From Candidatus Ghiorseimicrobium undicola (lineage in GTDB: Bacteria; Omnitrophota; Gorgyraeia; Ghiorseimicrobiales; Ghiorseimicrobiaceae), in NCBI GenBank assembly GCA_002796125.1, contig PCWA01000015.1, positions 11,650 through 73,903 on the forward strand: a stretch of 62,254 nucleotides of DNA. Reading direction: 5' to 3'. Below the pieces are notes generated by a model that saw nothing but the letters and a program-made list of their open reading frames with translations, did not search any database and was not told where the DNA came from. The position numbers and the translations under genes are program-made. This document shows, in pieces, positions 3,033-54,348 of this stretch; position 1 is the stretch's first letter, and the number at the start of each line of letters is the position of its first letter.

Positions 3033-4055
3033 ATGAAACAGTTGACTTATAAGAAATCCGGGGTGGATGTAAAGGCCGCCAATATTTTTGTCCAAAACAT
3101 AAAAAAAATAGTTAAGTCTACGCAGGGCAGGAATGTTCTGGCAAATATCGGGGGATTTGGCGGGTTATTTCAATTTGAAGCCGGAAAATATAAAAATCCC
3201 GTGCTTGTCTCATCTACTGACGGGGTAGGCACCAAGCTTAAGCTGGCCATCTTGGCGAATAAGCATGATACGGTCGGGATAGATTTAGTGGGGATGAACG
3301 TAAATGACATTTTATGTTGTGGCGCAAGCCCGCTTTTGTTTTTAGATTATATTGCCTGCGGCAAATTAAATAATAGCGTTTTGACAGATGTTGTTTCCGG
3401 CATAGCCAAGGGTTGCCGCATGTCTGGTTGCAGCCTTGTAGGAGGGGAGACCGCGGAAATGCCGGGAATGTATAAAGCGGATGATTATGACCTGGCCGGA
3501 TTCTGCCTTGGCGTTGTTGAGAGAGATAAAATTATTGACGGATCGAATATAAGGCTAAAAGATACATTAATCGGCATAGAATCTAACGGCCTGCATTCTA
3601 ATGGATTTTCTCTTGTAAGAAAAGTTTTTGCCTCAGGCGAACTTAAGAAGTATTCCGCAGAGCTGCTTAAGCCGACCCGTATTTACGTAAAATCAATTCT
3701 TGAGTTATTACGAGTTACGAGCTACGAGTTACGAGTCCCTGTTATTAAAGGCATTGCCCATATTACCGGCGGGGCGTTTTTTGACAAAATAATAAGGGTT
3801 GTCCCAAAGAAATTCGGGATCAAGGTTTATTATGATACCTGGCCTGTCCCGGATATATTTAAGCTGATACAGAAAAAAGGCAAAATCGCATCTAATGAGA
3901 TGTTGAAGACATTTAACATGGGCATAGGCTTAGTCTTGGTGGTAGACCATAAATATACAACCCTGACTATACGCAGACTTTTTGATTTGGGTCTTAAATC
4001 CTGGGCCATAGGAGAGATTGCCGCCAATAGTGGTAAGGTGGAGATAATTAATTGA
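3033..4055 (+). CDS. purM: Phosphoribosylformylglycinamidine cyclo-ligase
   Basis: TDGVGTK, GGETAEMP, SNGLHSNGFSL, HITGG, TFNMGIG. Confidence 0.97.
   Translation: MKQLTYKKSGVDVKAANIFVQNIKKIVKSTQGRNVLANIGGFGGLFQFEAGKYKNPVLVSSTDGVGTKLKLAILANKHDTVGIDLVGMNVNDILCCGASPLLFLDYIACGKLNNSVLTDVVSGIAKGCRMSGCSLVGGETAEMPGMYKADDYDLAGFCLGVVERDKIIDGSNIRLKDTLIGIESNGLHSNGFSLVRKVFASGELKKYSAELLKPTRIYVKSILELLRVTSYELRVPVIKGIAHITGGAFFDKIIRVVPKKFGIKVYYDTWPVPDIFKLIQKKGKIASNEMLKTFNMGIGLVLVVDHKYTTLTIRRLFDLGLKSWAIGEIAANSGKVEIIN
3709..3736 (+). repeat. Heptamer tandem repeat (TACGAGT-like x4) in-frame within purM
   Basis: tacgagt tacgagc tacgagt tacgagt, encoding part of LLRVTSYELRV. Confidence 0.85.
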
Positions 4056-5337: not shown

Positions 5338-5373
5338 ATTACACAAAACAAGCAATGCTTGTTTTGTGTAATT
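5337..5373. repeat. 37-bp palindrome upstream of the transposase (REP-like)
   Basis: aattacacaaaacaagca-a-tgcttgttttgtgtaatt: perfect 18-bp arms with a 1-nt centre. Confidence 0.95.
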
Positions 5374-5383
5374 GGTGAATAGT

Positions 5384-6301
5384 ATGGATATAGAGAAACT
5401 GGTTGAGCAGGGGAAAGTCAAACGGATATTTCGGGCGCGCAATAAGATATCGTATTCAGGCGCTTGCTGCCATATAACTCAACGCGCTCCCGGCAGGGAG
5501 CTTTTATTTGTGGATGATAGGGATTATTTATATATGCTGCATTTATTGAAAACTAAATCCAAGAAATTTAATTTTCAGGTTTATTCCTTCGCGCTTTTAC
5601 CAAACCATTTTCATCTCCAAATATGTTTAGGTAAGGATAATTTATCGGCAGCCATAAAGAATATTTGTGAGACGTACGCGAAAATGTTTAATAAGAAATA
5701 TAGCCGCAAAGGGCATGTTTTTTGCGGCGCTTTCCGGCAGGCTTTATGTTTTGACGATGTTTATCTATTGGCCACCTCTTTATATATTCATCTTAATCCG
5801 GTAAGGGCAAGGCTCGTAGATAAGCCGGGAAAATATAGATGGTCATCATGCCGTCTTTATGTTAAACCGCAAACCGCTCCGGCATTTGTAAATCACGAAT
5901 TTATTTTAAAAACTTTGGACGACGATATCACTCGGGCTCAGAACGCCTATAGTCAGATTCTAAACAGATCTATTTTGATAACTGCGGAAGAAATTTGGAA
6001 TCATCGTAAAGCCATTGAAGACTTTACCAATCGTTTATCAGGGTGTATTAAGGCTTTAATAAGCAGTAATAATGTTGGCTCGATTTCACATAGTTTATGG
6101 AAGGCGGATCTTGATAAAGTGGTGGAACGGGTTCGGAACAATAAACGAGCTATGGATTTGGATGATTTAAAGGAAAGAAAATATGCTATAGAGCAATTGC
6201 GCGCGAGGGGATACGCGATGGATGAGATAGCAAATAAGTTGAAATTAAGCCGCAAGACATTATATAATATACTAAAATTACACAAAACAAGCATTGCTTG
6301 A
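5384..6301 (+). mobile_element. REP-associated tyrosine (Y1/HUH) transposase-like protein with C-terminal HTH
   Basis: PNHFHL (HUH), YIHLNPVRA (catalytic Tyr-x-x-x-NP), GHVF, YRWSS; C-terminal GYAMDEIANKLKLSRKTLYNIL HTH. Start moved to ATG 5384 (track start 5372). Confidence 0.85.
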
Positions 6302-10038: not shown

Positions 10039-10111
10039 CGTAATTAGTAACTTTTAATCCGTAGTTTTTAATTACCAGTTACTAATTACCAATTACTAAT
10101 TACTAGTTACG
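10039..10111. repeat. Heptamer array (ARTTACN x6) with an upstream inverted partial copy
   Basis: aattacc agttact aattacc aattact aattact agttacg at 10070-10111; cgtaattagtaact at 10039-10052 is the reverse complement of agttactaattacg. Confidence 0.85.
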
Positions 10112-26821: not shown

Positions 26822-26882
26822 CCAGAAGCCATGATCCAGGATCCAGTATTTTTTCTGGCAGCTGGTTTATGGCTGTTGGTTT
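26822..26882. repeat. Inverted pair of heptamer tracts
   Basis: ccagaag ccatgat ccaggat ccagtat, then ctggcag ctggttt atggctg ttggttt. Confidence 0.6.
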
Positions 26883-31152: not shown

Positions 31153-31326
31153 TTATACAATAGCTTGAATGCTCAACCGCATGACTTATTCCTGTTTCAT
31201 CCCTGGTGAAAAATAAAAATTATAAAAGTATAGTAAAAACTTATGCCTCGGACAGCAAATTCTTGCCTTATTTTAAGGGGTATAATGTTTTTAGTGCCCA
31301 GGCAAGCAGTTTTTATTAAATTATCT

Positions 31327-31397
31327 TGGGATGTCGTCTAATGGTAGGACACGAGAATTTGGGTCTCGCTATTCTGGTTCGAGTCCAGGCGTCCCAG
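31327..31397 (+). tRNA. tRNA-Gln (anticodon TTG), CCA not encoded
   Basis: Acceptor TGGGATG/CGTCCCA with G73; anticodon stem CGAGA/TCTCG; T loop TTCGAGT; the ispE-tRNAGln-prs neighbourhood is typical. Confidence 0.9.
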
Positions 31398-31425
31398 TTT
31401 GATTTTGCCTTTGGCAAAATCAAAC
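31397..31425 (+). terminator. Perfect 13-bp hairpin directly after tRNA-Gln
   Basis: gtttgattttgcc-ttt-ggcaaaatcaaac; no U tract follows, so it may be a processing stem instead. Confidence 0.45.
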
Positions 31426-31507
31426 AGAGCGATTGAGCAATAGAAAATGGAACAATAGAGCTAATGCTCAATTGCGGTCTAATGTTCTATTGTTCAAAAG
31501 CCGATGC

Positions 31508-31594
31508 ATGGCTTTCATGCTTGAAAATCTAGAAGTATATAAGAAGGCAATCACTTTTGCTGATGAGATTAGTGATTTAACAGAGAAGTTCTGA
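31508..31594 (+). pseudogene. Truncated four-helix-bundle (IVP-like) protein gene
   Basis: Hand translation MAFMLENLEVYKKAITFADEISDLTEKF-stop matches the family's typical FExLxVYxKA N-terminus; stop lies 5 nt before glmU. Confidence 0.7.
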
Positions 31595-31599
31595 AAGTT

Positions 31600-32877
31600 A
31601 TGTTTAATAAAAAAAATAATTTAGCTGTATTGATATTGGCGGCTGGAAAAGGAACGCGCATGAAATCGCGCGTTACCAAGGTCCTTCATGAATTACGGGG
31701 AGCGCCCTTGCTTTCTTATCCTATAGGCCTGGCTGTTTCTTTGGGGGCCAAGGAAATTATTGTCGTAGCCGGTAAAAACAAAAAGGCGATAATAAATTTT
31801 GTCAGCAGCCGTTATGAGCAGAAAAATATAAAGGTTATCGAACAGAGAAAGCTTTTAGGGACAGCGGATGCCGTTTCTTCATCTATGGTTAGGCTAGGCC
31901 GCGGGATTTCCGATCTGCTGGTGCTTTACGGGGATCAGCCGTTATTATCGCTAAAAACAGCCTTAAGCCTGCTCGCTGCGCATTACCGTAATAGGAGTGT
32001 TTGTACTTTGCTTACCGCGAAAATTGAAGATGCTGCCGGTTACGGCAGGATTATAAGAAACCCGGAAGGAAATATTATCAAAATTTGCGAAGACGCGGAT
32101 TTATCTTTTCAGGATGCCGGGATCAACGAGGTTAACGCCGGCAGCTGTATTTTTAAAAAAGATGAATTGGCAAAGGCTTTAAAACTCATCAGGCCCGACA
32201 ATAAGAAAAAAGAATATTATCTGACAGAAGCGATAGGGCTATTGGCAGAGGCAGGAAAAAATATAAGTTCTGTTTATCCTAAAGAGCAATATGAAGTATT
32301 GGGCATTAATTCCCGTTACGATTTGATGAATCTGGAGAACATCCTTAATAAAGAAGCCATAAAAAGATTACTCGATAAAGGCGTTACTATTTTAAGCCCG
32401 GAGACGACGTTTATTGACTATAATGTTAAGATTGGCAGGGATACGCTGATTAAGCCGTTTGTGTATATAGGCGGCAATGTATCCATAGGCAAAAACTGTG
32501 TTGTAGGTCCGTTTTGCCACATAAGAGGCGGCAGTAAAATTAACGATAATTCCGTAGTAGGCAGCTTTGCTGAAGTGAACCGTTCTTTTATCGGCAAGAA
32601 TTGCCGCATTAAGCACTTTTCTTATCTGGGAGATGCCCGTTTGGGCAGAGATGTTAATATCGGCGCAGGCACTGTAACGGCTAATTTTGACGGTAAAAAT
32701 AAAAATATTACAAAGATTGGCGATAAGGCGTTTATCGGCTCGGACAGCATCTTGATTGCTCCCGTAAAAGTTGGTAAATCCTCTGTTACCGGAGCAGGGA
32801 GCGTTATTACAAAAGGAAAAGATATTCCGGATAAAGCGATTGCTTTGGGCGTCCCGGCCAAGATCTATGCTAAATAA
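31600..32877 (+). CDS. glmU: Bifunctional UDP-GlcNAc pyrophosphorylase / glucosamine-1-P acetyltransferase
   Basis: LAAGKGTRMKS, LGTADA, YGRII, EYYLT, HFSYLGDA, hexapeptide repeats. Confidence 0.95.
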   Translation: MFNKKNNLAVLILAAGKGTRMKSRVTKVLHELRGAPLLSYPIGLAVSLGAKEIIVVAGKNKKAIINFVSSRYEQKNIKVIEQRKLLGTADAVSSSMVRLGRGISDLLVLYGDQPLLSLKTALSLLAAHYRNRSVCTLLTAKIEDAAGYGRIIRNPEGNIIKICEDADLSFQDAGINEVNAGSCIFKKDELAKALKLIRPDNKKKEYYLTEAIGLLAEAGKNISSVYPKEQYEVLGINSRYDLMNLENILNKEAIKRLLDKGVTILSPETTFIDYNVKIGRDTLIKPFVYIGGNVSIGKNCVVGPFCHIRGGSKINDNSVVGSFAEVNRSFIGKNCRIKHFSYLGDARLGRDVNIGAGTVTANFDGKNKNITKIGDKAFIGSDSILIAPVKVGKSSVTGAGSVITKGKDIPDKAIALGVPAKIYAK

Positions 32878-53572: not shown

Positions 53573-54348
53573 TAACATTTTTTTTACTAGTTACTAGTTA
53601 CTGGTTACTGGTTACTATTTTTTCCGGCTGTGCCTCCGAATATAACCTAGCGACCGGCAGGGAAGAAATGCTATTTTATTCTACTGAAAAAGAAATAAAT
53701 TTAGGCAGGTCTATTTCCAGGCAAGTTGAAAGTAAATATAAATTGCTAGCCAGCGACTTATTACAGAAAAAAATAAATGATATAGGCCAGAAGATTGCCG
53801 ATGCCTGCGATAGAAAGGATTTAGTTTATTATTTTAAAGTTATTGATGACGAAGAGGTTAACGCTGTTTCCTTGCCCGGGGGTTATGTTTATGTAAATAA
53901 AGGCCTTATCGATATCGCCAGCGATGATGAACTAGCCTGTGTTATGGGGCATGAAGTGGCGCATATAGTGGCGCGCCACAGCATAAAAAAATTACAGGCA
54001 TCAATGGGATATATGCTGGCCAGAATACTTGCGGCACAGACGGTTGAGAATTCGCAGGCGGTTTACGGGGCCGATCTGGCTTTTGGGCAAATTATGCTGG
54101 GGTATTCGCGGGAAGACGAGTTGCTGGCGGACAAGGTAGGCGTAAAGTACGCGGATAAGGCAGGGTTTGACCCCAAGGCGATGATTAGCTTTTTGGAAAA
54201 ATTAAAAGATGTCAATCGTAAAAAACCCATAGCTCCTTTATCTTATGGGCGTACCCATCCCTATATATCGGATAGAATTAAAACCGTCAAGCAGGAACTG
54301 GGAGAGAATATAACTTTTAAAGATTATATCAACAGCCAGGAAGAATAA
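53554..54348 (+). CDS. M48 family metallopeptidase lipoprotein
   Basis: FSGC lipobox, VNAVSLPGG, HEVAH (HExxH), YSREDE..AD, THP. Confidence 0.92.
   Translation: MRNRNIITFFLLVTSYWLLVTIFSGCASEYNLATGREEMLFYSTEKEINLGRSISRQVESKYKLLASDLLQKKINDIGQKIADACDRKDLVYYFKVIDDEEVNAVSLPGGYVYVNKGLIDIASDDELACVMGHEVAHIVARHSIKKLQASMGYMLARILAAQTVENSQAVYGADLAFGQIMLGYSREDELLADKVGVKYADKAGFDPKAMISFLEKLKDVNRKKPIAPLSYGRTHPYISDRIKTVKQELGENITFKDYINSQEE
53584..53618 (+). repeat. Heptamer tandem repeat (TTACTRG-like x5) inside the M48 signal peptide
   Basis: ttactag ttactag ttactgg ttactgg ttactat, encoding LLVTSYWLLVT. Confidence 0.88.

Follow-up and report, generated by a model that had tools for sequence, protein, structure and literature searches.

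The locus considered here raises the question of what lies between the gene for tRNA-Gln(UUG) and glmU in Candidatus Ghiorseimicrobium undicola, where a hairpin, a set of inverted tracts and a short open reading frame (ORF) occupy the spacer. The junction is part of a 62,254-nt stretch of contig PCWA01000015.1 that was analysed as a whole (hereafter the window; all positions are counted on the whole stretch). An earlier note on this DNA had recorded the tRNA, a 13-bp hairpin, inverted heptamer-like tracts and a 28-codon ORF in front of glmU, all four of which were recovered. The spacer is probably a decayed copy of a two-part Omnitrophota cassette of about 450 nt, which is composed of a structured leader of about 105 nt and, 15-35 nt further on, a gene for a protein of 114 amino acids (aa) from the IVP (PF05635/TIGR02436) family of four-helix-bundle proteins. 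The cassette belongs to the intervening-sequence type, of which it represents a variant in architecture, rather than to a categorically new kind of system. No publication describing it was found.

Identification of the ORF as a gene remnant

The ORF starts with ATG at 31508, comprises 28 codons (MAFMLENLEVYKKAITFADEISDLTEKF) and ends with TGA at 31592-31594, leaving a gap of 5 nt before the glmU start codon (ATG 31600). Its product scored 16.6 bits (E = 0.0096) against Pfam PF05635, a marginal value below the cutoff of 33.8, and was aligned in exact register with profile positions 1-23, i.e. the first helix with its L-x-V-Y/W motif. A scan of the stump against NCBIfam gave no match, and a PDB search with a 25-aa peptide returned noise only. 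Behind the same upstream sequence, intact relatives carry an ORF of 114 aa (e.g. MAFMFENLEVYKKAITFADEVSDLTEKFSKGNYY... in locus L094), which reached 112.7 bits (E = 1.2e-32) against PF05635 and 105.7 bits against TIGR02436 and matched PDB entries 2GSC and 2RLD. A hidden Markov model (HMM) of this subfamily was built from 12 distinct relatives, ten of them intact and two altered at the C-terminus. It aligned the stump with positions 1-28 of 114 (E = 1.5e-8), and the stump is identical to an intact relative at 26 of the first 28 residues.

At the DNA level, positions 31425-31596 share 87.8% identity with L094 and L098, two loci with an intact gene (180 alignment columns); the homology ends at 31596 both in the alignment and in blastn. 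The continuity of this homology from the leader into the ORF and the alignment of the relatives at codons 1-28 were both checked and hold. Seven differences from L094 were read off the alignment within the 84 coding bases, and five of the seven are synonymous, which argues that the gene was working until fairly recently. The Shine-Dalgarno sequence reads AAGGTGA in the intact copies and AAGCCGA in the window.

The full domain of about 105 residues, which forms four helices, is not present in the window, where 28 of about 114 residues remain. Since the score of these 28 residues lies below the cutoff, yet the relatives score high, the ORF was classified as a pseudogene fragment of a family member and not as a member protein. 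Judged from its sequence, it is a genuine N-terminal stump of a 114-aa PF05635/TIGR02436 gene, as the earlier note had supposed when it called the peptide a truncated four-helix-bundle gene. The window copy is dead as a gene, codons 29-114 having been lost in a deletion that extends to 4 nt ahead of the glmU start codon. A scan of the window revealed no further gene of the PF05635/TIGR02436 family.

Collection of leader copies

The same leader was found at the tRNA-Gln/glmU junction of three other genomes, namely L002 and L003 (neither with an ORF) and L055 (frameshifted, internally deleted gene), which had been chosen through their match to ATTGCGGTC. The motif CAGAGC is invariant in the four aligned junction copies, as seen before any pattern search was made, and the core ATTGCGGTCTAAT is invariant in L002, L003 and L055. 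Metagenome contigs were scanned with the pattern CAGAGCRATYGA-N(25-55)-ATTGCGGTCWAAT, which retrieved 96 contigs. Metagenome contigs, genome loci and the window together yielded 110 copies with the exact pattern (about 81 unique), and a profile search of the fetched loci (1.37 Mb in total) detected 128, distributed over 100 loci. The search pattern places no constraint on the pairing partners, the arms, the hairpin P1 or the genomic contexts. The possibility that ATTGCGGTC represents a glmU-specific leader was rejected, because the metagenome copies precede many unrelated genes.

Structure of the leader

From 5' to 3', the leader of about 105 nt comprises the hairpin P1, CAGAGC, the stem P2, a 5' heptad-like arm, an A-rich loop, the core and a 3' arm. 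P1 is variable in sequence and abuts CAGAGC in 78 of the 81 unique copies; among the four junction copies, its sequence changes while the pairing is kept. In the window, the P1 arms GTTTGATTTTGCC (31397-31409) and GGCAAAATCAAAC (31413-31425) are complementary over all 13 bp (100%). P2 consists of 10 bp, in which GCRATYGANN pairs with NNTCRATTGC, and encloses the 5' arm and, following it, the variable A-rich loop. The core reads ATTGCGGTCWAAT (AUUGCGGUCWAAU as RNA), and its GGTCWAAT portion lies after P2.

Over 75 unique copies, 95.7% of the P2 cells are paired, as compared with at most 41% in slid registers. The covariation score of P2 was 0.245 versus 0.104 for shuffled alignments, with none of 500 shuffles as high, and compensatory changes were evident from the pair types at individual positions (UA 44 / CG 28; GC 48 / AU 18 / UA 3; CG 35 / AU 25). 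The duplex between the two arms had a mean energy of -17.2 kcal/mol (shuffled, -6.8 kcal/mol) and was better than shuffled in 73 of 81 copies. Two options exist for the 3' arm, a long hairpin that competes with P2 and a pseudoknot formed alongside P2. They are about equally well paired, with 77.4% for the hairpin register and 75.5% for the pseudoknot helix (86% with P2 included in the count). In 53 copies the sense strand gives the better fold and in 28 the antisense strand (p = 4e-4), and at one arm position G-U pairs are more frequent than any other; both observations point to folding of the sense strand, either as RNA or as single-stranded DNA. For the window itself, a 125-nt stretch was predicted to fold with -50.2 kcal/mol (z = -6.6). 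None of 200 shuffles folded as well, so this structure goes beyond chance.

The inverted tracts of the window are perfect over 10 nt (GAACAATAGA, 31450-31459; TCTATTGTTC, 31486-31495), 87% complementary over 15 nt (GCGATTGAGCAATAG / CTAATGCTCAATTGC) and 88% complementary over 16 nt (TTGAGCAATAGAAAAT / ATGTTCTATTGTTCAA). The tracts reported in the earlier note are thus real, with the correction that its 12-mers carry one mismatch and that the perfect part measures 10 nt. Its term 'heptamer-like' is apt in so far as the self-identity of the arm amounts to 0.54 at lag 7 (other lags, about 0.27), and loose in so far as lag 8 gives 0.50 as well.

Two copies (L122, at about 13315 on the reverse strand, and L138:736-800) contain a GC hairpin, CCTGCCTGCCGGCAGGCAGG, within the 5' arm, and other short inserts occupy the same place in L109, L114 and L120; these are nested mini-elements. 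An Rfam search upstream of the subfamily with the 'gcgctgt' hairpin returned nothing of interest.

Linkage of leader and gene

A gene or stump (HMM E <= 0.01) was detected within 15-35 nt downstream of 26 of the 110 copies and is of full length in 15 of them; shorter stubs were recognised by eye in five further copies (L151, L086, L165, L131 and L172). Every gene of the subfamily in the fetched loci adjoins an element. The arm subtype agrees with the protein clade: the TCGA-armed loci L152, L090 and L166 (the arm class of the latter was assigned by eye) form one clade with 98/95 support. The gene remnants comprise 28 codons in the window, 32 in L111, 13 in L106, 7 in L151, which represents the same tRNA-Gln/glmU junction, and about 7 in L086 and L165, and the gene is frameshifted in L055 and L137. 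As the stump lengths differ by lineage, the route from a gene-bearing unit to a leader alone has been taken many times. Leader and gene form one unit, in which the gene is often eroded and the leader left alone.

Genomic context and distribution

A same-strand tRNA gene precedes 41 of the 110 copies at a distance of 18-43 nt, which is the length of P1. Eleven isotypes are represented, among them Gln (17 copies), Ser (7) and Glu (5). The unit most often begins at the last tRNA base, and in many uncultured Omnitrophota the cassette is present behind tRNA genes in intact form. The remaining copies precede unrelated housekeeping genes, e.g. ilvN, secE, rpsM, rpsH, pyrH and gpsA. At least two copies within <= 14 kb were found at 21 loci, and tandem arrangements are made up of 448-nt units of leader plus gene (L090) or of 151-nt leaders (L173, L097).

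Comparison of tRNA-Gln-glmU junctions, as suggested in the earlier note, located the leader in L002, L003, L055 and L151, with the carriers scattered on the GlmU tree. On this tree of 45 loci, the five junction carriers require five changes, no fewer than shuffled labels. The sister of the window, L001, does not have the element at its tRNA-Gln/glmU junction, and in an unbiased genome sample the element was present in only 3 of about 45 Omnitrophota loci. The element of the window is 84% identical to those of L002 and L151, and the neighbouring genes are 65-76% identical (DNA). The unit behaves as a recurrently acquired, decaying element that is patchy on the host tree. This behaviour supports the idea of a cassette relic put forward in the earlier note; the heptamer-like arms, which were thought to flank the gene, both lie upstream of it in this subfamily.

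Several points weigh against a mobile unit. Downstream of the intact copies, no defined 3' boundary, target-site duplication or terminal inverted repeat was found. A repeat of the tRNA end or of P1 is not above chance downstream of ten gene-carrying copies (nine intact), which include L128, whose upstream flank is cut at a contig end. No recombinase, transposase or reverse transcriptase (RT) was found linked to the unit, no dedicated RT or integrase search having been made. No pair of filled and empty sites was found within one population, nor a population variant that retains the intact gene at this junction, and the X1 and X2 contigs described below match the window exactly. The degree of conservation might be due to purifying selection acting on an RNA of the host and not to horizontal spread, the tRNA being about equally conserved. 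With respect to the sample, the pattern fixes CAGAGCRATYGA and ATTGCGGTCWAAT, so that their invariance among the metagenome copies arises by construction and diverged relatives are under-sampled, and several contigs represent one organism sampled twice. Related hairpin-leader-gene starts in metatranscriptome assemblies provide weak evidence of transcription, these contigs being unstranded, assembled and possibly containing DNA.

In L166 (reverse strand) and L090, the intact gene is followed by a second hairpin and CAGAGCAAT, and a direct repeat of about 27 nt thus lies on either side of arms and gene, which could be a recombination footprint or simply reflect adjacent copies. An att-type or target-duplication boundary after the intact genes was considered and rejected, none having been found; the second hairpin and CAGAGCAAT in L166 and L090 are the start of a further copy of the element.

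Proposed mode of propagation

The unit may be a selfish element that spreads horizontally and is related to the ORF-carrying intervening sequences of rRNA. Being co-transcribed with the upstream tRNA, it would travel on a stable-RNA transcript, and an imperfect stem of about 20 bp would serve as a processing or insulation site, probably for RNase III, that separates the tRNA from the mRNA of the cassette. The likely ligand of the protein would be the folded leader. PDB entry 2GSC was deposited with five chains, which suggests that proteins of this type may form pentamers. The combination of tRNA co-transcription, an RNase III-type stem and a pentamer-forming protein acting on the leader is put forward tentatively and is less likely than not to be correct. 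In the window, the leader would now merely be a spacer or the 5' leader of glmU.

Alternative explanations

If the leader were a vertically inherited host RNA with a role in cis-regulation or processing (an attenuator, a thermometer-like switch or a tRNA 3'-trailer signal), the gene would be one client among others and nothing would be mobile. Such an RNA would account for the sense orientation of the leader 15-150 nt ahead of the start codons of ilvN, secE, rpsM, rpsH, pyrH, gpsA and glmU, for the two mutually exclusive pairings (P2 versus the long hairpin), the higher stability of the sense strand, the conservation above that of the flanking genes and the position of the hairpin directly after a tRNA, but it is at odds with the scattered presence at one junction, the downstream genes that are mutually unrelated, the tandem arrays of 151-nt and 448-nt units and the other small repeats nested in some copies. 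The strong tie to one eroding gene family (26 of 110 copies) and the occurrence in 3 of about 45 Omnitrophota loci of the unbiased sample likewise argue against it, and we consider this explanation unlikely.

Similarly improbable is a DNA palindrome of the repetitive extragenic palindrome (REP), bacterial interspersed mosaic element (BIME) or miniature inverted-repeat transposable element (MITE) type, mobilised in the form of single-stranded DNA by a transposase from another locus, such as the HUH enzyme at 5372-6301 of the window, with the gene as a passenger. The leader is multi-copy, palindromic and intergenic, with gene-less and tandem copies, and an HUH-type gene bracketed by palindromes does exist in the same window; however, P1 and the arms are unlike the HUH-bracketing palindrome ATTACACAAAACAAGCAATGCTTGTTTTGTGTAAT, and neither a target duplication nor terminal repeats were found. 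Moreover, the orientation to the gene is strictly fixed, the gene subtype matches the arm subtype, and the strand asymmetry and the sense-strand G-U pairs suit RNA at least as well. A likeness of P1 to the HUH palindrome of the window was considered and rejected on comparison.

That the ORF is a chance open frame or a remnant of the Avd gene of a diversity-generating retroelement (DGR), unconnected with the inverted tracts, would agree with a Pfam score of 16.6 bits against a cutoff of 33.8, the lack of an NCBIfam match for the stump and the relationship of the family to Avd (bAvd E = 0.006; PMC10053308), but is highly improbable in view of the subfamily HMM (E = 1.5e-8), the collinear 88% DNA homology that spans leader and ORF up to the intact genes, the 21.6 bits reached by intact relatives against the Avd equivalog cutoff of 80, and a window with no other gene of the family, in which RT and template/variable repeats were not searched for beyond that.

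Comparison with known systems

The decayed-cassette interpretation places the element closest to the intervening sequences (IVS) of 23S rRNA, ORF-carrying examples of which are also known from Leptospira and others. The IVS in helix 45 of the Coxiella burnetii 23S rRNA, a selfish element of 428 nt whose S23p ORF is eroding, is excised by RNase III and was acquired horizontally (PMC4990558). The cassette is of similar size (about 450 nt, with a tandem period of 448 nt), carries S23p/PF05635 cargo (in the window, the stump only) that erodes in place, resides in the transcription unit of a stable RNA, has a long imperfect stem and shows the patchy distribution to be expected from horizontal transfer. 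Unlike the IVS, it resides behind tRNA genes and in mRNA spacers, not within a 23S helix (25 or 45), and it has P1, CAGAGC, P2 and the core ATTGCGGTCWAAT; excision by RNase III, known for Coxiella, is a putative step in the cassette. An IVS-like stem enclosing the ORF was considered and rejected: the duplex between upstream and downstream flanks of 12 intact copies had -39.7 kcal/mol and equals the shuffled value of -39.3 kcal/mol, and both arms lie upstream.

The Avd proteins of DGRs have a related four-helix-bundle fold (PMC10053308), and PF22296 gave a weak match. They differ in that an intact relative scored 21.6 bits against NF033474 (cutoff, 80) and in that copies of the unit keep appearing beside tRNA and housekeeping genes; neither an RT nor a template/variable repeat was found to accompany the unit, no RT-directed search having been made. 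On plasmid pANA02 of Anabaena sp. 90, a complete DGR pair of RT and annotated Avd (L186:9043-10539) is located 34 kb from a heptamer-bracketed four-helix-bundle gene, so that the two relatives coexist there as separate systems.

With REP/BIME elements and their REP-associated tyrosine transposases (RAYT) and with MITEs, the cassette shares short palindromic, multi-copy intergenic repeats that also form tandem and nested mosaics. In contrast to them, it was found with neither a linked HUH transposase nor terminal inverted repeats or a target duplication, and its orientation to a small, non-enzymatic-looking gene is fixed. In contrast to tRNA-targeted integrative islands, no far-end tRNA repeat was found, and the unit is too small for an integrase. 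As to integron attC sites, GTCTAAT fits RYYYAAC at 6 of 7 positions by eye, without a complementary partner and with no search made for an integrase; the structured site lies 5' of the ORF here and not 3' of it.

Heptamer arrays next to family genes in cyanobacterial plasmids

The earlier note had stated that genes of this family are often flanked by 7-mer repeats, which holds for cyanobacterial plasmids. A tblastn search of a plasmid collection yielded nine cyanobacterial genes of the family, seven of which are flanked by short-period arrays, mostly of 7-nt units. An upstream array faces a complementary downstream array in six of the nine (e.g. GTAGGGA x8 / TCCCTAC x5 in Nostoc and GGTGACA-type / CTGTCAC x4 in Anabaena), one lies between direct arrays (AAAGCTA x14, AAAGCCA x9), and two have no arrays. 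On pANA02, the flanks of the family gene pair with -88.2 kcal/mol, the strongest value among 45 genes (next, -45.0; median, -30.4 kcal/mol). No publication linking the family to flanking heptamers was found; the literature on the family names consisted of DGR and annotation papers. Family genes of four cyanobacterial plasmid loci (L179, L182, L183, L181) are wedged into operons with gaps of about 35-45 nt, namely between cas10 and cmr3 in Picosynechococcus, cas6 and cas4 in Anabaena and Pseudanabaena, and nrdB and nrdA in Nostoc.

Both settings have in common the protein family, arms with a period of about 7 nt and a gene held tightly between host genes. They differ in that the cyanobacterial order is array, gene and complement, with units that vary by copy and no shared core, whereas in the Omnitrophota form the arms stand together upstream, with a conserved core and an obligatory hairpin in front. 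Among other heptanucleotide tandem repeats are the cyanobacterial short tandemly repeated repetitive (STRR) sequences. Heptamers of the TAACTGA type are found in Beggiatoaceae, Cyanobacteria and Bacteroidetes (PMC4679880), and that publication does not mention the four-helix-bundle family. The STRR and TAACTGA repeats resemble the arms in their 7-nt period, their intergenic position just before start codons and their unexplained phylogenetic spread, but are simple direct arrays with no core, hairpin partner or linked gene.

A wider and rather doubtful possibility is that PF05635/TIGR02436 proteins and heptad-arm hairpins constitute one cross-phylum class of self-propagating cassettes, in which a pentameric protein would recognise a folded repeat adjacent to the gene that encodes it, be it as RNA or as single-stranded DNA. 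In that case, the form seen in Omnitrophota would be a derived one, with both arms upstream, invariant CAGAGC and AUUGCGGUCWAAU and an obligatory hairpin, that homes to tRNA 3' ends. The gene-less leaders left after decay of the gene would be retained by the host as spacer or leader RNA, and the many heptamer hairpins without an ORF in these genomes would then be empty targets or cassette remains.

Other heptamer arrays of the window

The earlier note had also offered the cassette as a source of the heptamer arrays across the window, a suggestion that was not borne out. The arrays at 3708-3736, 10069-10110 and 53584-53617 and the tracts at 26822-26882 are made of other units (TTACGAG, TAATTAC/CAGTTAC, TTACTAG). 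They contain neither CAGAGC nor ATTGCGGTC, and a profile of 75 element sequences gave no match to them even at E = 100. Units of the CAGTTAC and TAGTTAC types are similar to TAACTGA read on the opposite strand. The fetched loci contain about one period-7 array per 10 kb, with dozens of different units; their frequency and the diversity of their units indicate a general feature of these genomes rather than offspring of the cassette.

Individual arrays are placed as follows. At 10039-10110, an inverted heptamer palindrome, in which GTAATTAGTAAC faces a six-unit array of TAATTAC / CAGTTAC / TAGTTAC, directly precedes an nrdR-like start codon (10118). At 53584-53617, TTACTAG/TTACTGG x5 is translated in frame as LLVTSYWLLVT, the hydrophobic signal-peptide core of a lipoprotein, immediately in front of the ...SGC lipobox. 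At 3708-3736, TTACGAG x4 lies in frame inside ORF 3033-4055.

Significance

The 23S-IVP/four-helix-bundle family is very large, is listed with unknown function and is known mainly through rRNA insertions and its kinship with the Avd proteins of DGRs. In Omnitrophota, the gene is accompanied by its own conserved folded leader; units are placed behind tRNA genes and decay there, with the leader remaining. The leader provides the family with a defined candidate nucleic-acid partner, and a controlled test ties the family to the long-unexplained heptanucleotide repeats of cyanobacteria. For annotation, the cassette accounts for a class of structured, conserved spacers found in Omnitrophota as well as for small stump ORFs next to tRNA genes.

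Layout of the tRNA-Gln/glmU junction

The gene order around the junction is ispE, spoVG, tRNA-Gln(UUG), a 201-nt spacer, glmU and prs, and the features of the spacer are listed in Table 1. GlmU of the window is 62% and 58% identical to the proteins of two Omnitrophota-type metagenome-assembled genomes. Contigs from two groundwater metagenome runs (X1, X2) match the junction letter for letter, which rules out an assembly artefact. A consensus scan of the spacer revealed no convincing promoter or terminator, and a scan of the junction against Rfam 15 found the tRNA alone, with no matching family for the leader.

Table 1. Features of the tRNA-Gln/glmU junction in the window.
Feature	Position	Strand	Basis and remarks
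tRNA-Gln(UUG)	31326-31398	+	ARAGORN; Rfam RF00005, 50.1 bits; cassette begins at the last tRNA base
P1 hairpin	31397-31425	+	Perfect 13 bp with 3-nt loop; last base doubles as C of CAGAGC
CAGAGC, conserved single-stranded motif	31425-31430	+	Alignment of junction copies
P2 stem	31429-31475	+	GCGATTGAGC (31429-31438) pairs with GCTCAATTGC (31466-31475); 5' arm and variable loop inside
5' arm, 7-8-nt units ATTGAGC AATAGAAAAT GGAACAATAGAGC	31432-31462	+	Periodicity; direct repeat
Conserved core ATTGCGGTCTAAT	31471-31483	+	Single exact copy in the window
3' arm GTTCTATTGTTCAA	31484-31497	+	Complement of the 5' arm
IVP (PF05635/TIGR02436) gene relic, codons 1-28 and TGA	31508-31594	+	Subfamily HMM
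Deletion junction; IVP codons 29-114 and 3' flank lost	31595-31599	+	Alignment with L094; blastn end point
glmU, host gene abutted by the stump, outside the cassette	31600-32877	+	tRNA-Gln -> glmU order conserved in Omnitrophota loci

The stop codon of the stump lies 5 nt ahead of the glmU start codon (31592-31602), with no clear Shine-Dalgarno sequence in between. Coupled translation of the 28-codon relic and glmU is possible and could account for the ORF staying open. An 8-mer within the core (GTCTAATG, 31477-31484) is identical to a D-loop segment of the neighbouring tRNA-Gln (31336-31343), perhaps by coincidence. Mimicry of a tRNA by the core was considered and rejected, since the shared 8-mer gives no tRNA-like fold and ARAGORN returned no match.

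A different structured insert is present in the tRNA-Gln/glmU spacer of the closest relative of the window (L001:3768-3989), and such inserts also occur in the spacers of L023, L057, L069 and L009. These alternative inserts are about 170-400 nt long and end, as judged by eye, in a duplicated tRNA-Gln 3' end in L001 (...gagtccaggcgtcccag), L023, L057 and L069. They appear to represent a second, unrelated element that exploits the same site.

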